DNA from: an uncultured Oscillospiraceae bacterium
Lineage (GTDB): Bacteria; Bacillota; Clostridia; Oscillospirales; Oscillospiraceae
NCBI GenBank assembly: GCA_964609305.1
Contig: CAZSRK010000001.1
Span: forward strand, 20,411-84,410
Reading direction: 5' to 3'
DNA: 64,000 nt
This document shows positions 28,772 through 52,012 of this stretch, one piece after another (position 1 is the first letter of the stretch; each line of letters begins with the position of its first letter). The notes under the pieces are model-generated. The model worked only from the letters and a program-made list of their open reading frames with translations, was not told the DNA's origin and did no database searches. The translations under genes and the position numbers were made by a program.

Positions 28772-29710
28772 TTATTGCCTGATTATACGGGTCCCGGTCT
28801 CTCCCCGGACGCCGGCGCCGGCCTTTTCCAAAAGGGTTATCAGCGCCTCTCGCCCTTCGCCGCCACTCACGAACTGCACCGATGCCTCCATCTTCGGCAA
28901 CATTGAGCCCGTGCCAAACTGCCCCTCGAGCGCGTATTTCTCCGCCTGCTCCACTGTTATACAGTCGAGCTCCTGCTGGTCCTCCCGTCCAAAATTGATG
29001 CAGACCTTTTCTACCGCGGTCAGAATGATAAGTCGGTCGGCGCCGAGCTTATCGGCCAGCAGGGCCGAGGCAAAGTCCTTATCTATGACAGCCGCTGCGC
29101 CCTTGAGGTGATACCCCTCGGTGCGGAAGACCGGGATCCCGCCTCCGCCGCAGGCAATCACCACAAGACCCGCCTCGACCATGTCCCGGATGGAGTCTAT
29201 CTCTATTATGCGCCGCGGCATGGGAGAGGACACCACGCGGCGGTAGCCGCGGCCCGAATCCTCAATGACGGTATAGCCGCGCTCCTTCGTCAGGTGCCGC
29301 GCCTCCTCCGCCGTCATAAACGCGCCAATGGGTTTGGTGGGGTTCTGGAACGCGGGATCTTCCCTGTCGACCTCCACCTGCGTCAGGACAGTGGAAACAC
29401 CTTTGGATATCCCGCGCCCGAGCATCTCCTCGCGCAGGGCGTTTTGCAGGTCATAGCCAATGTAGCCCTGGCTCATCGCCACGCAGACGGACAGGGGGCA
29501 TGGTATATATTTCTCCGGATCGGAACGGGTCAGCTCCGTCATGGCCTGCTGGAGCATACCGACCTGCGGCCCGTTACCATGGGTTATTACTATGTCATGC
29601 CCGGCCTCTATAAGATCCGTTATTGCCCTTGCAGTCTGCTTGACCGCCTTCATCTGCTCCGGCAGGTTGGAGCCGAGGGCATTTCCCCCAAGCGCAATTA
29701 CTATCCTCAA
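28772..29710 (-). CDS. arcC: carbamate kinase
   Basis: MRIVIALGGNAL...VITHGNGPQVG...ACGGGGIPV are carbamate kinase signatures. It is the last gene of the ygeW operon, like E. coli yqeA. Confidence 0.9.
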   Translation of the reverse strand: MRIVIALGGNALGSNLPEQMKAVKQTARAITDLIEAGHDIVITHGNGPQVGMLQQAMTELTRSDPEKYIPCPLSVCVAMSQGYIGYDLQNALREEMLGRGISKGVSTVLTQVEVDREDPAFQNPTKPIGAFMTAEEARHLTKERGYTVIEDSGRGYRRVVSSPMPRRIIEIDSIRDMVEAGLVVIACGGGGIPVFRTEGYHLKGAAAVIDKDFASALLADKLGADRLIILTAVEKVCINFGREDQQELDCITVEQAEKYALEGQFGTGSMLPKMEASVQFVSGGEGREALITLLEKAGAGVRGETGTRIIRQ

Positions 29711-29721
29711 CTTTTTCTCCC

Positions 29722-30924
29722 TCAGCCATTGAGCGTCTGTCTCTCAACGCCCCACTCGTCAAGCTTTTCCAGCATTTTGGCCGGGTCTTTGACCTTTGCA
29801 AGGAAGATCATCGCCGCGATTATATACGGCTTGAAGCCGGCCTGCTTATAAAGAGGCACGCGGTAACGGTCAAAGACGGAGCCGACCACCTCGCCCTCGG
29901 CGCAGGACACTCCGGTTATATCTGCCGGCAGGCAATGCAGATACAGCGCCTTGCCCCCGCGCGTGAGCGCCATCATCTCCTCGGTGCACTCCCAGTCCCT
30001 GTGCTCGGAATTCTGCGCCAGAAGCTCCTTCTCCAATGCGTCTATTCCGTCAAAATCGCCGTTTCCGTAAAGCTCCGTGCGCTTTTCCATCGCGGCAAAG
30101 GGCGCCCAGCTCTTGGGATAGACGATGTCAGCATCCTTGAACGCCTCGGCCATGGAATTTGTCTTGGTAAACGAGCCGCCGGACTTTTCCGCGTTGGCCA
30201 GCGCAACCTGTTCTACCTCGGGCATTACCTCATAGCCCTCCGGATGGGCCAGCACAACGTCCATGCCGAAGCGTGTGAACAGGCCGATGACACCCTGAGG
30301 CACGGACAGAGGTTTGCCGTAGCTGGGCGAATATGCCCAGGTCATTGCAATTTTTTTACCCTTGAGGTTTTCCACGCCGCCGAACTCATGGATCACATGC
30401 AGCAGGTCGGCCATGGTCTGGGTCGGGTGGTCGATGTCGCACTGAAGGTTCACCAGCACCGGGCGCTGCTTGAGCACGCCGTCCTCATACCCCTCTCTGA
30501 CCGCATCGGAAACGGATTTCTGATAGGTATGGCCCTTGCCTATGTACATATCGTCGCGGATGCCTATCACATCGGCCATGAAGGAAATCATGTTCGCAGT
30601 CTCCCTCACAGTCTCCCCATGTGCTATCTGGCTCTTGCCCTCGTCAAGATCCTGCACCTGCAGGCCAAGGAGGTTGCAGGCCGATGCAAAGGAAAATCGC
30701 GTGCGGGTGGAGTTGTCGCGGAAGTTGGATATGCCGAGTCCGGAATCAAATATCCTGCAGGATATGTTGCGCTCACGCAGGTTGCGCAGGGCGTCGGCCA
30801 CGGCGAAAACGGCGTCCAGCTCGTCGTCGGTCTTGTCCCAGGTGAGGAAAAAGTCCTCGCCATACATGTCCTTGCAGTCGAGTTTTTTGAGCCTTTCCAC
30901 AAGCTTTTTGAGTTTTGCGTCCAT
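29722..30924 (-). CDS. ygeW: YgeW-type (knotted) carbamoyltransferase
   Basis: The start at MDAKLKKLVERL follows AAGGAGAG. DNSTRTRFSFASA is the carbamoyl-phosphate site, and DIDHPTQTMADLLH and HCLPADITG are also present. The overall pattern matches YgeW rather than OTC or ATC. Confidence 0.8.
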   Translation of the reverse strand: MDAKLKKLVERLKKLDCKDMYGEDFFLTWDKTDDELDAVFAVADALRNLRERNISCRIFDSGLGISNFRDNSTRTRFSFASACNLLGLQVQDLDEGKSQIAHGETVRETANMISFMADVIGIRDDMYIGKGHTYQKSVSDAVREGYEDGVLKQRPVLVNLQCDIDHPTQTMADLLHVIHEFGGVENLKGKKIAMTWAYSPSYGKPLSVPQGVIGLFTRFGMDVVLAHPEGYEVMPEVEQVALANAEKSGGSFTKTNSMAEAFKDADIVYPKSWAPFAAMEKRTELYGNGDFDGIDALEKELLAQNSEHRDWECTEEMMALTRGGKALYLHCLPADITGVSCAEGEVVGSVFDRYRVPLYKQAGFKPYIIAAMIFLAKVKDPAKMLEKLDEWGVERQTLNG

Positions 30925-30946
30925 CTTTGTGACTCTCCTTTGTTTT

Positions 30947-32359
30947 TTATTTGATGTCATTGCCGGTCAGCGCGGCACGAAACTGCGTGGCGTCCTGCGT
31001 CCCTTCCTCCCGCCTGTACAGCCCGGGTACCGCCGCATACACCGCCGCGCAGGTGACCAGGTCCTGCTTCCAGGTTATCTCGTTCGGCGCGTGCGCCCAG
31101 CTCTCCGCGCCGGGACCAAAGCCAACGCAGGGAATACCATAGCGGCCCTGTATGGACACGCCGTTTGTTGAAAAGGTCCACTTGTCGGTCAACGGCCGGC
31201 CGCGGCGCAGATGCATCGCGTCGCGGTAATTATCCTCATCGGCATAGCCGATGCGCTCTTCGCCGAACATGGCGCGGTGCGCCTGTGCGAGCGCCTGCAC
31301 ATGTGCGGAGGTCTGCCTGTTTATCCAGGTCGGGAAATAGCATTCGGTCTCATATACCTCGCCTGTCCAGCTCGGCCGGTCGTACATATACATGGATACC
31401 GTGACGTCCTGTCCGTACTTTTTGACGGCGGGCAGCGCGCGTATCTCGTCCAGACAGGAATCCCAGGTTTCGCCGGCGGTCATACGCCTGTCTATCGACA
31501 CGGAGCAGGAGTCGGCCACCGCACAGCGGCTCGGGCTTGTAAAGAAGATCTCGCTGACCGTGCAGGTACCCCGGCCCAGAAAGCGCGCATCCTGCCAGTG
31601 TTCCGGGTTGTATTCCGGCTCCAGCATCTTTACAAGGCCCTTGATCTCCACGCTGTCATCCGCCGGGTTTTCGTTCAGCGCTCGCACGTCCTGAAGAATA
31701 TCCGCCATTTTATATATCGCGTTGTCGCCGCGCTCCGGCGCGCTGCCGTGGCAGGATACGCCCCTGACGTCGACGCGTATCTCCATGCGTCCGCGGTGGC
31801 CGCGGTATATGCCGCCGTCGGTCGGCTCCGTCGAAATGACAAATTCGATCCTGCTTCTCGCGTCCTCGGGTCCGTCAAAGTACTTGTTGACGATGTACTG
31901 CCAGCACATGCCGTCGCAGTCCTCCTCCTGTACGGAGCCGACGACCATGAGCCTGTATTCCTCGGGTATCAGGTCGAGATCTTTCATTATCTTCGCGCCG
32001 TACACGGCGGAGGCCATGCCCCCCTCCTGGTCGCTGCCGCCGCGGCCGTAGATTATCTCGTTGTCCTCCCAGCCCTCGTAGGGGTCGGCGCTCCAGTTGT
32101 CGATATTGCCGATGCCGACGGTGTCGATGTGGGAGTCGATGGCGATTATCCTGTCCCCATCGCCCATCCAGCCGATTACGTTGCCGAGCCCGTCGACCTC
32201 CACTTTGTCGAAGCCGAGCTTTTCCATCTCCGCCTTTATACAGGCGACGACCTCTCCCTCGTGGCAGCTCTCGCTCGGAAGCCTTATCATCGCGCGCAGG
32301 AACGCGCTCATGTCCTCCCGGTATCCCTTAGCAGCCGCCTTTATCGCTTCAAAATCCAT
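30947..32359 (-). CDS. ygeY: YgeY-like M20-family amidohydrolase
   Basis: [20 protein letters not shown] and EEDCDG are M20 metal and catalytic motifs. It is adjacent to ygeW and ygfK, as in the E. coli yge/ygf region. Confidence 0.8.
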
Positions 32360-32378
32360 AAATTTCCCTCCTTTTGTA

Positions 32379-35351
32379 TCAGTAAACCAGCCAACTGTAA
32401 TTATTTATGACGGCCCGGACCATATCTCCGGCCATATCAGGTATCTCATCAAGCGTATATTCGTTAGTTCCTTCTCCGATACGGACAAGTATCTGATTAT
32501 TTTCAAGAATAAGGAAACCGGGATTTTCACTGCTGTCAAAGTCCTCGCGCGTTGAAAAGAGTGTGAACTTCGTGCGGTACGGCCCGCCAACATAGGGGCA
32601 GAAGACCTCACAGTTGCCGCACTCGTTGCACATGGCGTCAACATGAAGTATCTGCCGCGCGCCGTTTACAGTCACGGCGATGTTTGCCCTGTTCGGACAT
32701 ACCTCACAGCAGGTCTCGCAGACGGTCGGGCACTCAAGGCAGCGGTAGGAATTGCTGACGTTATCAAGATCAGTGGCAAGATACCCGCGCTTGAACCTTG
32801 CAGACGTATCGTCAGGAGCAGCGTTTATCTCTTCATATTTTGACAGGTCGAGTCCGGCGATTGCCTGCACCGCCGCCGTCGCGCCTGCGATCGCCTCGAC
32901 GACTGTCTTGGGGCCGGTCCTCGCGTCGCCGGCGAGCCAGACTCCCTTAACATTAGTGCTTCCATCGGCATTGCAGACGGGCCTTCCCCGCTTGTCAAGC
33001 TCGATACCGAAACGGGAATAGAGCTCGCTGTCGGTACGCTCCCCGACAGCGGCGATGACGACGTCCGCGTCGACGTCCTGCGTCTGGCCGGTCGCGACAG
33101 GGCTGCGGCGGCCGCTGGAGTCCGGCTCGCCCAGACGCATGACCTGACAGGTCAGTTTGCCATCCCTCACCCCGACGGGCGCCAGCAGCGGCCGGAACTC
33201 GACGCCTTCGTGCATCGCCTCGACAAGTTCCTCCTCGTCGGCGGGCATGTTGCGCACATCCCGGCGATAGACGAGCGATACCTTCTCAACACCGCGGCAG
33301 CGCAGCGCGGCGCGTGCGGCGTCCATGGCGGTATTGCCTCCGCCGACTATGACAACGTTTTTACCGGGCTGAAGCGCCTCGCCCCGGGTCTTGAAATCAC
33401 GAAGAAATTCGATGACATTCCTCGCCTCGCCGTACTCCAGCCCGAGCTTTCCGGGATTCCATGCTCCTGTTGCGATAATAATGGTCTCAAAGCCAAGGGC
33501 TGCTATCTCATTTGGAGAATTTATCTCTCTGCCCGTTATGAACTCGACGCCCAGCGCCCGACAGAGCTCGAGGTCCCGATCAACCGTCTCTTCGCTGATG
33601 CGGAAGGAGGGAATTACGTTCCTGACGATGCCTCCGGGCTTTTCCAGGCGCTCGAATACCGTCGCCTTAAAACCCGCGCGGGCCAGGAAAAAAGCGCAGG
33701 ATATGCCGGCGGGGCCGCCGCCTATGATACCCACCTTTCGGCCGTTTGGCGCGGCTGGCCTGATCTCATTCAGAAGCTCTGCCTGCCCGTTCAGGGCGCT
33801 TTCAAGCTTGACGGCGCGGATGTCTACCGGCGCCTCATAGTGGTTTCTCATGCACTTGTTCATGCAGGTATGCGGGCAGATGGTGCCCGTGATGTTCGGC
33901 AGAGGGTTACGCTCGGTTATAACACGCAGCGCCTCGAGGTATCGTCCCTCTCCTGCCAGTCGCAGGTATGCGGGTATATCCTGATTTATCGGGCAGGTAC
34001 GGTGACAGGGTGCGGTAAAGCAGTCGAAGACAGGAAGCTGCTGCTCCAGCCTGCGCGAGGGCAGGGGCTTTACCGGCTTGCGGTAATGCCCGTCCTGCAA
34101 AGCCGCCGCGGCAAGAGCCGAGACCTTTTCCGTGCTTACCTTCTCAAATGGAACGTATTCCACATCCGCCATCATATCCGCAAGCTGGCACAGCCTGTTG
34201 TATCCGCCGGATTTGAGCAGCGTCGTGGCCATGGTTATGGGCCAGATGCCCGCGTTGAACAGATCCTCAATATTAAACGCATCCGCTCCCCCGCAGTAGC
34301 TTATCCGGAGCTTTCCATCAAATTCCGCGGCGAGCCGGCTGCACAGCTCTACCGTGAGCGGATACAGGCTCCTGCCGGACATATACATCTCCTCGGCCGG
34401 GAGCTCACCCTGCGTGACCTTGACGGGAAACGTGTTCGTGAGCTTGACCCCGAAGCTCAGGCCATGGCTTTCGGCCAGCGCCATGAGCCGGCGGAACATC
34501 GGCACCGCATCGGCATACTGCAGATCGTCGTTGAAGTGGAAATCGTCAAAGGCCATGTAATCGAAGCCCAGCGAATCAAGCGTTGAACGGGCAAATTTAT
34601 ATCCGAGCAGCGTGGGGTTGCATTTCACGAAAGTGTTGAGCTTTTTTCTCTCAACAAGATATGTCGCAATGCTTTCTATCTCTTTTGGAGGACATCCGTG
34701 CAGTGTAGAGAGGGTTATGCCGGAGCAGATACGCGGGGAAATACTGTCGATATAGTCCCAGCTTACCTTGTAGAAGCTGGAGAGATTGCCTTTGGCCCAG
34801 GACATACACTCCTGCCAGACGGCGGAGCCGGACGCGTCCCTGAGCCCCTCTATGAAAGCGTCTATCTTCGGCGACTGTATTCCGGCCAGGTCGTATCCTA
34901 CGGACATGTTGAACATGAACCCGTCCGGACGGCCGAGGCCGAATTCCAGTGAGATGAGCTTGAGCACAAACCAGGCCTTGACATACTCGTCGAACGCCTC
35001 CTGTACGGTCAGCTCGGTCGACCACTCGCAGTTATAGGCCTCGTCGCCGGAGGCGATGCAGGGCTTGTTTACACATGCGGCCAGCTCCCGTCCATCCACG
35101 GTCTGGACAGTCTTGAGCTCGAAAAAACGTCCGCCGGCGACATAGGCTGCGACTATGTTCTGCGCAAGCTGCGTATTCGGGCCTGCTGCGGGGCCGAAGG
35201 GCGTCTCCAGTTTCTCTCCGAACAGCTCCAGTGTCCGGCCGGGGGCCCTGTGCAGCTTTGAAACCCCGAAGACCGTGCCCTGGCTGCGGTATTCGGCGAG
35301 GATATGGGTCATCAGTTTTTCAAATGGTATCGGTTTCATTATATCGCTCAT
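32379..35351 (-). CDS. ygfK: YgfK-like Fe-S flavoprotein oxidoreductase (DPD-like barrel, GltD-like FAD/NAD(P) domains, ferredoxin domain)
   Basis: The 990-aa product has two dinucleotide folds ([21 protein letters not shown] and [15 protein letters not shown]). The C-terminus carries cysteine clusters [19 protein letters not shown] and [12 protein letters not shown]. Confidence 0.85.
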
Positions 35352-35370
35352 AATCTACCTCCTGTCGGGC

Positions 35371-36702
35371 TTAGCCGTTGAGCTCTTTCCAGAGCTTGTC
35401 CGCACTCGCCCGTATATGGGCGTTTATCGCTTCCTCATCGATATTCACGAGCTCTCGGTCGCGCATGAGCACCTTTCCGTTTACGACGGTGGTCTGGCAC
35501 TGTCGGCCGGTCATGCCGAATATCATGTGCCCGTCTATATTCGCGTCGGAGAACTGGGTAAAGGGCTTATAGTCCATGACGATGACGTCTGCGGCAGCGC
35601 CCTCGGATAGTATGCCCAGCGGTTTTCCGAAGTGGCGCGAGGCGATGGCCGGGTTGTTTCTGAACATTGCCCCCGTTACCTCCGTCCATGCGACGCCGGG
35701 CAGACAGGCGTTGTGCCGCTGGATGATGAGCGCGACTTTCAGGCTCTCGAGCATGTCGTGGGTATAGGCGTCCGTGCCCAGACCGACAGTTATGCCCTTT
35801 TTGCACATCTGGAGCACCGGCGAGCAGCCGACGGCATTGCCCATATTGGACTCCGGATTATTCACGACCGCCGTGTTCGTCTCTTTTATCAATTCCATCT
35901 CCGCAGTATTTATATGTATGCAGTGGCCAAGCAGCGTACGCTCGCCGAGTATACCGTGGTCATGCAGGCGCTGGACAGGACGGCGGCCATAATTTTGCAG
36001 GCTGTCATATACGTCGTTCATCCCCTCCGAGACATGGATGTGGTAACCCATGAGGCCGTTGTTCTCCTGTACGCAGCGCTCAAAGGTCTTGTCGGAGAGT
36101 GTGAAGAGCGCATGCATGCCGAACATCGGCTTTATCATGTCGCTGTTCTGCTCGATTGCCCATCTGCCAAACTCGACGTTCTCACGTATCGCCTGAAGGC
36201 ACTTCTCCTCCCCGTCACGGTCGGACACCTCGTAGCACAGGCAGGCGCGCTCGCCCAGCTCCTTTGCAACGTCGGCTATCGCAAAAAGTGATCCGGGGAT
36301 CTCCGCATAGCTGGCGTGATGGTCAAATATGGTCGTCACTCCCTGCTTTATACAGTCGATGATCGTCGCATAGGCGCTCGCGCGCGTGCCCTCGATGGTC
36401 AGATGGCGGTCAATGTTCCACCACATCCCGTCGAGCACTTCGAAAAAGTTCGTCGGCGCATACCCGTTTATGGACAGGCCGCGGGCCAGCGCGCTGTAAA
36501 TATGCGTGTGCGCGTTTATAAAGCCGGGCATTATCACACCTCCGCGCGCGTCGACGAACTCAGCGCCGAGATACTTCTGGCGTATCTGTGAAAAATCGCC
36601 GACCTCCACGATGGTATCCCCGTTGCAGGCGACCGCACCGTCCTCAAAATACGGTTTTTTCTCATCCCTTGTAATGACTTTTCCGTTTCCTATTATGAGC
36701 AT
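35371..36702 (-). CDS. ssnA: SsnA-like amidohydrolase
   Basis: The start at MLIIGNGKV follows GGAGG. It has the metal-binding motif PGFINAHTHIYS and lies immediately upstream of ygfK, as in E. coli. Confidence 0.8.
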   Translation of the reverse strand: MLIIGNGKVITRDEKKPYFEDGAVACNGDTIVEVGDFSQIRQKYLGAEFVDARGGVIMPGFINAHTHIYSALARGLSINGYAPTNFFEVLDGMWWNIDRHLTIEGTRASAYATIIDCIKQGVTTIFDHHASYAEIPGSLFAIADVAKELGERACLCYEVSDRDGEEKCLQAIRENVEFGRWAIEQNSDMIKPMFGMHALFTLSDKTFERCVQENNGLMGYHIHVSEGMNDVYDSLQNYGRRPVQRLHDHGILGERTLLGHCIHINTAEMELIKETNTAVVNNPESNMGNAVGCSPVLQMCKKGITVGLGTDAYTHDMLESLKVALIIQRHNACLPGVAWTEVTGAMFRNNPAIASRHFGKPLGILSEGAAADVIVMDYKPFTQFSDANIDGHMIFGMTGRQCQTTVVNGKVLMRDRELVNIDEEAINAHIRASADKLWKELNG

Positions 36703-36898
36703 TGCGACTTTACCTCCTCGATGCTTTTCCATCAAAAAGGGCGTCCACCTTTCGTGAACGCCCTTTCACGCGGCAGCAAAACGGCTTCAGCCTGCTCAAA
36801 GAGCGGGAGTATCAGCCCGTGCGCGAAGCACTTCGTTACAGCCGAAGAATATATTACCTGTATATCTGATTTTACCATCACTGTGTATTCCATTGCAA
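36703..36898 (-). promoter_or_regulatory. promoter plus about 165-nt structured leader ending in an intrinsic terminator, upstream of ssnA (candidate riboswitch or attenuator, class unknown)
   Basis: On the minus strand: TTGCAA (36893-36898), an 18-nt spacer, then TGgTAAAAT (-10 at 36869-36874). Several local hairpins follow. The terminator AAGGGCGTTCAC-GAAA-GGTGGACGCCCTT plus TTTTG (about 36731-36767) lies only about 25 nt before the ssnA RBS. A competing hairpin CGTGAA-AGGGCG-TTCACG overlaps the terminator 5' arm. Confidence 0.5.
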
Positions 36899-36906
36899 TA
36901 GCCAAA

Positions 36907-38169
36907 TCAAAAAATTCTTTTTCCGGACACAAATTTTGCGCAGCAGTCCTCTCCGCGGGAGAGGAAAATGAACCGCTCGAGACGCTCGCGCATCGAATAG
37001 GGCCGATTTGTACCGAACCTCGCCTCGTCGGCGACGACGGCGTCGAACTCAAACCCCTCGCAGAAAGCGCCGGTGTCTCCGAAGAACGCGCCTGCTCCGC
37101 GTGTCGCGAGATAGAACACCTCGTTGCAGCCGAGCGCTGCCTCCGGCTCCGAGCACAGCCTTGCGCGCAGTTTTGACGCTCGCATCGCCTCGCGCATCGC
37201 CTCGTTTATATCAAGGCTTTCTCCGCCGGATATGTCCGTACCCAGGCCGATGTTGACCCCCGCCTCGAGATATCGGCGCACGGGGGCGACGCCGCTTTTG
37301 ATATTGGAGTTGGAGCTGGGGCAATGGGCGATGAATGCGCCGCGCTGGAGCATAAGCTCAGTCTCCCGCCGGTCGTTATAAAGACAGTGCGCCATAACCG
37401 TCCTGTCCGTCAGCAGCCCGAAGCCGTCATATACGTCGGCATAATCCAGTGCGGAGGGGAAGAGCCTTTTGACCCACTCTATTTCGTCGTGCGTCTCGTC
37501 CAGATGTGACTGGACATACAGCCCCCGCCCGCGCACGAGCTCTCCCAGCCGGCGCAGCAGCTCATCCGTGCAGCTGGGCGCAAAGCGCGGGGTTATTATG
37601 GGTTTTGTGTTTTCAAACCCGGCGCAGCCGTCCAGCCAGCGCAAAGTCTCGCGCATCGAGCTGTTCGCGTCTTTCTCCCTCAGGAAATCGGGACAGTTCC
37701 TGTCCATGTTTACCTTTCCAACCAGGGTATGCAGCCCGCTCTCCTCCAGAAGACGCATGAGAAGCAAAGTCGCGGGCACATGCACCGTTGCGAATATGGC
37801 CGCCCGGGTCGTGAATCCCCGCCGGAGCTCTCCGACGAACGCGGCGTAGACCTTTTCGGCATACTGCATGTCCTCAAACTTTGCCTCTTCGGGAAAGGTC
37901 AGGCCGTCGAGCCACTGTATGAGCTCATGGTCCATGCCCAGTCCGAGGTCGGCATACTGGCTGGCATGGGTATGCAGATCGGAAAAGCCCGGCATCACGA
38001 ACTTTCCGGAAAAATCCAAAATGGGCAGTCCGGAATATCTCTCCGGCAGGGATCGAAACAATCCGGCGCAGCGCCCATCTTCACAGACAAGGAAAGAATC
38101 CTCCGAAAATTCGGCGCCTTTAGGTGTCGGCGCATGCACTATGTCGCCGCGCAGAACAAAATCCTTCAT
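36907..38169 (-). CDS. guaD: amidohydrolase-superfamily guanine-deaminase-like enzyme
   Basis: The start at MKDFVLRGDIVH follows ACGGAGG (the track ORF extends to 38328). Motifs are PGFSDLHTHASQ, HLDETHDEIEWV and GLGTDISGG. Confidence 0.65.
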   Translation of the reverse strand: MKDFVLRGDIVHAPTPKGAEFSEDSFLVCEDGRCAGLFRSLPERYSGLPILDFSGKFVMPGFSDLHTHASQYADLGLGMDHELIQWLDGLTFPEEAKFEDMQYAEKVYAAFVGELRRGFTTRAAIFATVHVPATLLLMRLLEESGLHTLVGKVNMDRNCPDFLREKDANSSMRETLRWLDGCAGFENTKPIITPRFAPSCTDELLRRLGELVRGRGLYVQSHLDETHDEIEWVKRLFPSALDYADVYDGFGLLTDRTVMAHCLYNDRRETELMLQRGAFIAHCPSSNSNIKSGVAPVRRYLEAGVNIGLGTDISGGESLDINEAMREAMRASKLRARLCSEPEAALGCNEVFYLATRGAGAFFGDTGAFCEGFEFDAVVADEARFGTNRPYSMRERLERFIFLSRGEDCCAKFVSGKRIF

Positions 38170-38372
38170 CAATACCGCCTCCGTTTTTGCCGCCATCCTG
38201 CTCCGGAACGGCGGATATATGCCCCTGCGCCCGTGCCCCATCCGGCATGAGAATGGCGCATATAATAAAATTGCGCAATATATTTTATCATATACGCCGG
38301 AGCAAAACAACTTGTGTTCGTCTGCCATTTATCGTATACTTGACTCAACCAGATAATTCGGGAGGATGTATC

Positions 38373-51792: not shown

Positions 51793-51814
51793 ACATCTAA
51801 TAAAATTGGATCGC

Positions 51815-51965
51815 AGTCAGATAGAGGCGCGGGACTGATGAGTATCGCCGGAAGAGACAGGCATCTGTCCGGCGGGAAAGGCCGCTCCGCCGAAGCGTTC
51901 CGGCGCTGCCTGGTGCCGGGATGGCTGGGCCGCAGGGAAATACTCTGCGGACTGTCACATGAGTT
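51815..51965 (+). promoter_or_regulatory. lysine riboswitch (L-box) aptamer
   Basis: GATAGAGGCGCGGGACTGATGAGTATCGCC...GGAAAGGCCGCTCCGCCGAAGC...CTGGGCCGCAGGG...GCGGACTGTCACA matches the B. subtilis lysC L-box block by block (AGAGGUGCG, GAGUA, CGCCGAAG, CUGG, GGCUGUCA). Confidence 0.88.
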
Positions 51966-52012
51966 TCGTGTGAAGCGCTATCACGGGTCGAACCGGCAAA
52001 GTCCGTATTCCC

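Follow-up and report, generated by a model that had tools for sequence, protein, structure and literature searches.

How an operon is expressed when a strong intrinsic terminator stands just ahead of its first gene is the question raised by the ssnA locus of this uncultured Oscillospiraceae bacterium. The locus lies on the minus strand of the window, by which is meant the whole stretch of 64,000 nucleotides that was analysed. A first-pass annotation, made from the letters of the sequence, had proposed that the RNA between the promoter and ssnA is a candidate riboswitch of an unrecognised class, and that the operon must be expressed by regulated read-through of the terminator. The follow-up analysis dealt with what this leader is, which genes it accompanies and how it might control them.

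Promoter, Leader and Terminator Ahead of ssnA

The promoter, the leader, the strong terminator, the Shine-Dalgarno sequence and ssnA were all found at the positions that the first-pass annotation had given them:

36869 to 36898, minus strand: promoter of the sigma-70 type, from a consensus scan, kept in the congeners L004 and L005
36734 to 36767, minus strand: intrinsic terminator, -26.8 kcal/mol and z = -5.4, also found by consensus scan
36700 to 36719, minus strand: Shine-Dalgarno sequence GAGGAGG (36719-36713) and ssnA start codon ATG (36702-36700), from the sequence and the ssnA profile match

The promoter follows closely on a guaD-like gene, whose stop codon at 36909-36907 lies 9 nt ahead of the -35 element TTGCAA (36898-36893). 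An 18-nt spacer separates the latter from an extended -10 element, TGgTAAAAT on the minus strand, in which the TG is found at 36877-36876 and the -10 hexamer at 36874-36869. With 0.4 sites expected in shuffled sequence by the consensus scan, and with the -35, the spacing and the -10 identical in both congeners, the good promoter claimed after the guaD stop was recovered. From these elements we infer a transcription start at about 36863-36861. The leader that follows the promoter is around 160 nt long and ends in the terminator, and the four small hairpins that had been described in it are each present as written on the minus strand. As a whole, the folding of the leader is not unusually stable (z = -1.39).

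The terminator is made up of a 5' arm at 36767-36754, a GAAAG loop at 36753-36749, a 3' arm at 36748-36735 and a U-tract at 36738-36734. It is thus a 14-bp G+C-rich stem followed by UUUUU, the G+C-rich hairpin with a direct U-tract on the transcribed strand that is expected of a Rho-independent terminator. Its strength is as had been claimed, with none of 200 shuffled sequences folding as well, and it was also picked up by a consensus scan of the wider region. No minus-strand promoter is predicted by the consensus scan between the terminator and ssnA, as the first-pass annotation had held, and regulated read-through is therefore most likely the way in which the operon is expressed.

Two further features of this region deserve mention. 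The guaD-like gene itself (36907-38328, minus strand) scores 344.3 bits against the guanine deaminase model TIGR02967, under the curated cut-off of 375.4, and its product may have a different purine or a pterin as the substrate for deamination. An open reading frame of 106 codons (36732-37052, minus strand) runs from the end of this gene through the whole leader and has its stop inside the terminator U-tract. It was considered as a coding sequence and judged spurious, because the loop of the P2 helix described below is 5, 6 or 7 nt long in relatives, indels that break the frame, and the flanks are unconserved.

Identity of the Leader

A comparison with Rfam by Infernal cmscan, which the first-pass annotation had itself suggested, returned one family:

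36804 to 36851, minus strand: ssnA RNA core (RF03031, model positions 1-48 of 48), cmscan score 51.6 bits

The match (Rfam 15, searched with the window) is full-length, has an E value of 2.9e-11 and exceeds the gathering score of 37.3. RF03031 alone was returned among 4227 families for positions 36600-37000 at E values up to 10, which rules out a purine, xanthine, T-box or lysine element as the identity of the leader. The earlier reading had likewise been unable to place it among the guanine/adenine purine elements, the T-boxes or the L-boxes, and in that it was right. What stood of that reading was that the leader is a cis-regulatory RNA, with a promoter of its own and a terminator; what did not was the unrecognised class, since ssnA leaders of this type are already known and are catalogued as RF03031. 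That the leader is a member of the ssnA RNA family is virtually certain.

Rfam gives the type of RF03031 as 'Cis-reg', without a riboswitch label. The ssnA RNA reportedly belongs to the 224 candidate structured RNAs that Weinberg et al. described in 2017 (NAR 45:10811). The name of the ssnA motif is absent from the main text of PMC5737381, and a literature search found no paper on a ligand or an experimental test of the ssnA RNA. The leader and the Rfam family have in common the fold of the P1 and P2 helices, the invariant loop bases, the position ahead of ssnA and a gut bacterium of the class Clostridia as the host, and nothing essential is different between them. The RF03031 model comprises the 48-nt core alone, without an expression platform, and the surroundings of the core are those of the genus: the flanks here are CUUCGG... 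and ...CUCCCG, as against UGGUAG... and ...CUAUCA, and there is an extra 47-nt spacer before the terminator.

Known purine-sensing RNAs were also looked for individually. The purine riboswitch RF00167 has no match in 36600-37000 at E values up to 10, and none anywhere in this genome, while the control genomes did match. The xanthine riboswitch RF03054 has no match in the leader in the local scan at E values up to 10; it has none genome-wide either, and since the control genomes were also without a match, only the local scan is informative. The genome, which is 97% complete, is thus without an RF00167 match and yet contains a large purine-catabolism island. Besides RF03031, the only Rfam family at its gathering score within the window is the lysine riboswitch RF00168, of which the full model is matched at 51814-51988 on the plus strand with 100.4 bits.

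Structure and Conservation of the Core

The core consists of two short helices around an asymmetric, conserved internal loop. P1 is formed by CGGCU (36844-36840) and GGCUG (36817-36813), with 5 bp, and P2 by GUGC (36831-36828) and GCAC (36822-36819), with 4 bp. Between them, the loop has the 8-nt GUAACGAA on its 5' side and a G on its 3' side. The hairpin GUGC-UUCGC-GCAC of the first-pass annotation is P2 of the Rfam model, and the first and third of its four hairpins are alternatives to P1.

The earlier note had also called for an alignment of leaders from relatives, and 69 distinct 48-nt cores were aligned. Conservation of the sequence was amply seen, with 20 positions invariant across the 69 cores, G13, A15, A16, G18 and G34-C37 among them, and all 20 present in the window. 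RNAalifold recovers P1 and P2 independently of Rfam, and the consensus fold, with a P1 of 5 bp, an 8-nt 5' loop and a P2 of 4 bp closed by a loop of 5-7 nt, is found here. By pair counts in the core alignment, 96.8% of the cells are paired. Covariation is thin, as only three of the nine pairs vary. These are 24-30 (C-G in 61 cores, U-A in 6 and U-G in 2), 9-38 and 8-39, the latter two with mostly one-sided change. Since the other six pairs are without any variation, the fold of the core rests mainly on sequence conservation, and it is a credible one as judged from the aligned sequences. In thermodynamic ensembles, the core has a population of only 0.001-0.02, which in the model is as expected for a structure that requires an effector. 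No signal of a generic closing helix was found between the 35-nt flanks of the core (mean z = -0.06).

Distribution and Associated Genes

A single copy of the ssnA RNA is found in this genome. Across the Oscillospiraceae, 106 of the 401 genomes searched have a match to RF03031, as do 44 of the 134 genera; around 399 genomes from elsewhere in the class have none at the cut-off, so that within the genomes searched the ssnA RNA is confined to this family. In a pattern scan, the named carriers among the matches listed were Oscillibacter, Flavonifractor, Dysosmobacter, Intestinimonas, Lawsonibacter, Pseudoflavonifractor and others.

When the leaders were pooled, there were at least 194 unique ones, and in 176 of these 194 an ssnA orthologue starts no more than 500 nt downstream, whatever gene lies upstream. 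Among the 18 without ssnA downstream, about nine are truncated by the end of a contig and four are chance matches of the search pattern; the remainder precede either a gene for a hydantoinase/dihydropyrimidinase-like protein or one for a PyrK/NfnA-like flavoprotein subunit, which are enzymes of the same pathway type as ssnA. The gene upstream of the leader is unconserved: it is guaD-like in only 6 of 97 cases and divergent in about half. The element is thus tied to ssnA, and it has to be transcribed from a promoter of its own.

In a set of 61 close relatives, no genome has the motif without also having ssnA, and three have ssnA without the motif. In one of these three (G014), where the sequence was read, ssnA stands closely behind another gene, and a 90-nt spacer there (locus L340, around 515-580) has two tandem copies of AAGACAGGGGGACGGTTCTCGTGTCT, each forming a small hairpin. 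The region upstream of another motif-less ssnA (L341 in G016, 377-444) has a long, near-perfect, G+C-rich hairpin, ACGGGCGCACAGUGUGCGCCCCUAC...GUAGGGGCGCACACUGUGCGCCCGU, which surfaced solely as spurious microRNA matches.

Extra copies of the core were seen in L092, L096, L148 (Intestinimonas-type), L152 and L198, where they precede the hydantoinase/dihydropyrimidinase-like gene (MSILIRKGTLVLPEG...) or the gene for the PyrK/NfnA-like FAD subunit. An 18-bp hairpin beginning within the core serves as the terminator in L092, L096 and L148. With these copies ahead of other genes, the regulon is wider than ssnA in some genera.

The Operon Behind the Leader and Its Pathway

The genes behind the leader form one operon, ssnA-ygfK-ygeY-ygeW-carbamate kinase, whose members all score above the curated NCBIfam cut-offs:

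28772 to 36702, minus strand: the whole operon, identified by NCBIfam scores
35371 to 36702, minus strand: ssnA, 647.6 bits to NF005540 (SsnA)
32379 to 35351, minus strand: ygfK, 1327.4 bits to its NCBIfam model
30947 to 32359, minus strand: ygeY, 608.9 bits to its NCBIfam model
29722 to 30960, minus strand: ygeW, 776.2 bits to its NCBIfam model
28772 to 29710, minus strand: carbamate kinase gene, 373.4 bits to its NCBIfam model

No promoter-like or terminator-like sites were found on the minus strand inside the operon by consensus scan. As predicted from these gene assignments, the operon encodes steps of the anaerobic 2,8-dioxopurine pathway, also known as the reductive uric-acid pathway. 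YgfK and SsnA jointly reduce 2,8-dioxopurine and open its ring (PMC12507026; bioRxiv 10.1101/2025.04.24.650524). In three unrelated gut bacteria, uric acid induces ssnA, ygfK, ygeY and ygeW, which rank there among the genes with the strongest response to it, and in E. coli it induces ygfK (bioRxiv 10.1101/2022.07.24.501321). Induction of the orthologues by uric acid fits an ON switch. The GntR/HutC palindrome of the island, ATGTAT-N-ATACAT, was looked for with up to 3 mismatches allowed, and no site turned up near the ssnA promoter.

Terminators and Expression Platforms Across the Family

An element resembling a terminator, i.e., a U-tract after an arm with a strong partner, is present in around 177 of 187 usable leaders. 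The leaders were assigned to classes by the pairing of the terminator arms, a stricter terminator finder, by which 79 leaders have no terminator, being judged too strict. In 26 leaders from several genera, the 3' arm of the terminator pairs best with the conserved core itself. This direct-overlap pairing has energies of -9 to -24 kcal/mol, and in 18 of the 26 its z score is at or below -2 when compared with shuffled arms. The usual partner within the core is GCGCACGGGC, which is made up of the 3' strand of P2 and the 3' strand of P1, and in some leaders the partner is the whole P2 hairpin, or the 5' strand of P1 together with the loop. The fold of the core and the terminator are mutually exclusive in these 26 leaders, so that stabilisation of the core prevents termination, which implies an ON switch.

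Other leaders attach different platforms to the same core. In 23 of them, the sequence directly after the core (GAAUGGAC) copies the 3' arm of the terminator and can therefore pair with the 5' arm; the candidate anti-terminator that results has a median helix of 8 bp, a mean z of -2.5 and a z below -2 in 70%. A 5'-flank helix, UUCCAU/AUGGA, was considered for this class and rejected, since by eye it is unconserved across the class. The largest class, of 98 leaders, has a flank helix, UGGUAG/CUAUCA, with bases in common with both P1 and a short anti-terminator. A few leaders lack a terminator, and their ribosome binding site is near the core. With one conserved sensor joined to several unrelated platforms, it is on the RNA that selection acts. 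The pattern is by analogy typical of riboswitches, though protein-binding leaders show the same. When modelled, the coupling of core and terminator is small or positive in most relatives, and forcing the core to fold usually raises the modelled probability of the anti-terminator across leaders.

Possible Coupling of Core and Terminator in the Window

The terminator of the window begins 47 nt after the core and does not overlap it. No complementarity beyond background was found between the two, and their thermodynamic coupling in the window is nil (ddG = 0.00 kcal/mol). A connection between them would have to pass through the sequences in between, for which there are these candidates:

36798 to 36805, minus strand: candidate anti-terminator 5' strand CGCUCUUU, which pairs with AAAGGGCG (36766-36759), 8 bp
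36794 to 36804, minus strand: small hairpin GCUC-UUU-GAGC, seen in the sequence, which overlaps the anti-terminator 5' strand
36784 to 36791, minus strand: candidate decoy 'P1-alt' GGCUGAAG, which pairs with CUUCGGCU (36847-36840) in an uninterrupted helix of 8 bp

Since CUUCGGCU is made up of the 5' flank and the 5' strand of P1, the decoy pairing would compete with P1; the two use a common strand, and P1 therefore blocks the decoy. In the pre-terminator transcript, the fold of minimum energy contains the decoy helix, which is kept as CUUCGGC/GCUGAAG in L004 and L005. The decoy has a z score of -1.6 in the window, of -2.5 in the congeners and, as a mean across the family, of -1.2, with 18% below -2. 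The candidate anti-terminator has an energy of around -10 kcal/mol, has its partner in the 5' arm of the terminator and is identical in L001, L004 and L005. Compared with composition-matched shuffles, this helix is indistinguishable from them (z = -0.2 to -0.5). The decoy helix and the anti-terminator cross and are thus mutually exclusive. When the core was forced to fold, the modelled probability of the anti-terminator rose from 0.15 to 0.53 in the window; there was no effect in L004.

The hairpin GCUC-UUU-GAGC can be extended to CCCGCUC/GAGCAGG, an extension that by eye survives U-A and U-G changes in L004. A competing hairpin, CGUGAA/UUCACG, had been noted earlier at the 5' arm of the terminator. 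As an anti-terminator it fails, since L004 and L005 have AUCCAA and ACCCAA in its place. Only two independent relatives have the expression platform of the window. A metagenome-wide search for more leaders of this subtype, by the pattern CACGGGCTG-N6-14-GCTCNNNGAGCAG, gave 120 matches, all of them by chance and none with the core, the pattern being too loose.

Transcripts from Gut Communities

Transcripts are available from a Flavonifractor-type relative, L068. Metatranscriptome contigs from two independent studies, which are around 98-99% identical to this leader, run from the core through the terminator and into ssnA. The bovine contigs span positions 173-739 of L068 in one case and 580-741 plus 288-593 in another, and the pig contig spans 407-778. 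From these contigs it follows that the L068 leader and ssnA share a transcript and that the terminator is read through in the gut; as they are assembled contigs, termination is not measurable from them. A 161-nt contig from a size-fractionated library covers L068 from 775 to 615 and ends 4 nt beyond the U-tract.

The ends of the L068 contigs differ. Those from the bovine source stop at the first bases of P1 (739-741) and those from the pig source around 35 nt further (775-778), with the start predicted at around 795. This difference could be due to an assembly break caused by strain variation, a processing site or a second promoter. For the window organism itself, two 151-nt pieces were seen in one run of unspecified type.

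Proposed Mechanism

As an overall explanation, it is likely that the ssnA RNA core and the terminator together constitute an effector-responsive ON attenuation leader of the ssnA operon. Transcription attenuation by the leader is highly probable, ON polarity is fairly probable, and for a small molecule as the effector the chances are somewhat short of even. In this mechanism, transcription would start about 18 nt ahead of the 48-nt core. With its two short helices around a near-invariant loop, the core would be only marginally stable alone, and the effector would hold it folded. Once the core is so folded, the terminator at 36767-36734 would not form and the polymerase would read into ssnA; without the effector, the terminator would form. 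In the window the signal would be relayed by competition of P1 with the decoy helix CUUCGGCU/GGCUGAAG, exclusion of the anti-terminator CGCUCUUU/AAAGGGCG by the decoy, and competition of the anti-terminator with the terminator, with an ON polarity as in the direct-overlap class. This particular relay, which comes from modelling, is put forward tentatively.

A purine catabolite such as 2,8-dioxopurine or urate would be the favoured guess for the effector. Given the pathway of the operon, the induction of its orthologues by uric acid and a genome without matches to purine or xanthine riboswitches, 2,8-dioxopurine and urate are the natural first candidate ligands. That the ssnA RNA is a metabolite-binding ON riboswitch for 2,8-dioxopurine (yanthine), urate or a close catabolite is a candidate reading, possible and on present evidence doubtful.

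The closest parallel in mechanism is the adenine riboswitch of pbuE (ydhL) in B. subtilis, an ON switch in which aptamer sequence supplies the terminator. The 26 direct-overlap relatives are similar in that the 3' half of their core is also the 5' arm of the terminator, so that the folded core prevents termination, and the theme of purine-related genes switched on by their substrate is common to both. Unlike pbuE, the ssnA RNA is unrelated in sequence and fold, has no three-way junction and no RF00167 match, the terminator of the window does not overlap the core, and ligand binding is only a candidate property. A second parallel is the xanthine riboswitch (NMT1 motif, RF03054), which senses xanthine and uric acid in Proteobacteria. 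It too is a small hairpin with a highly conserved internal loop ahead of purine-catabolism genes, a precedent that makes an oxidised-purine ligand plausible for the ssnA RNA, but there is no covariance-model similarity between the two, and the phylum, the associated genes and the consensus differ.

Alternative Explanations

Attenuation could operate just as proposed with an RNA-binding antiterminator protein as the effector, in the style of PyrR, HutP or ANTAR, whose binding to the conserved core would depend on the presence of purine catabolites. The core is very small, and a protein effector is for that reason equally compatible with all of the data here: 48 nt with 8-9 bp, 20 invariant bases and almost no covariation would suit a protein site just as well, and neither the 'Cis-reg' type in Rfam nor the literature, in which no paper reporting a ligand was found, speaks for a metabolite. 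However, no gene for an RNA-binding regulator was noticed adjoining the motif, the upstream gene varying widely, and the only regulator noted in the island is a DNA-binding GntR/HutC protein. Moreover, one core with several unrelated platforms is what riboswitches typically show, and with 2,8-dioxopurine not recognised as a metabolite until 2025, it is possible that no one has tried it as a ligand. A protein effector is considered unlikely. The polarity could also be the reverse, such that the effector-bound core, closed by the flank helix, sequesters the anti-terminator strand and lets the terminator form. In the 98 leaders of the largest class, the UGGUAG/CUAUCA helix does close around the core and overlap the anti-terminator strand, by eye it has compensatory changes (e.g., GACGG/CUGUC and GACAG/CUGUC), and it reaches 11 bp in L057. 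This flank helix shares U8-A9-G10 with P1, and it is thus better read as an alternative pairing of the unbound state. In the 26 direct-overlap leaders, folding of the core can act only against termination, an opposite polarity for the same gene in sister genera is unlikely, and the operon is a catabolic one whose orthologues elsewhere are induced by substrate, all of which leaves an OFF switch rather improbable.

The simplest alternative is that there is no regulatory RNA at all, the hairpin just ending the guaD-like gene, the conserved sequence being a DNA operator or due to chance, and ssnA being expressed constitutively or from elsewhere. The terminator does lie downstream of guaD on the same strand, and the folding of the whole leader is, as noted above, unremarkable. 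Against this stand the constancy of ssnA downstream of the leaders and the rarity of a guaD-like gene upstream, where about half of the neighbours are divergent; the conserved promoter between guaD and the core; and the complementarity of the terminator arms to the core, at the RNA level, in the 26 leaders. The variable loop of P2 rules out a coding frame, and the lack of a GntR-type palindrome near the promoter does not favour an operator. By these sequence comparisons, an absence of regulatory RNA is highly improbable and appears already largely refuted.

Significance

As the element had already been catalogued, any claim to its discovery falls. What has changed since 2017 is the context, as the genes that it controls are now known to be those of the 2,8-dioxopurine (reductive uric-acid) pathway. 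Gut anaerobes clear urate of the host by this route, a process that bears on hyperuricaemia and gout. An orphan RNA has thereby acquired a handful of candidate ligands that can be put to the test. From the comparison of leaders an ON direction is predicted, and the direct-overlap leaders, e.g., L071 or L073, are natural minimal constructs with which an assay would be easiest. If validated, the element may serve as a biosensor for urate or yanthine and as a marker of purine-degrading Oscillospiraceae. Were the ssnA RNA indeed a riboswitch for 2,8-dioxopurine or urate, a new class of ligand would be sensed by an aptamer of around 40 nt, and its orphan status would be explained by a ligand that was recognised as a metabolite only in 2025. 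For the reductive uric-acid pathway of gut anaerobes, no dedicated regulator would have been described before it.
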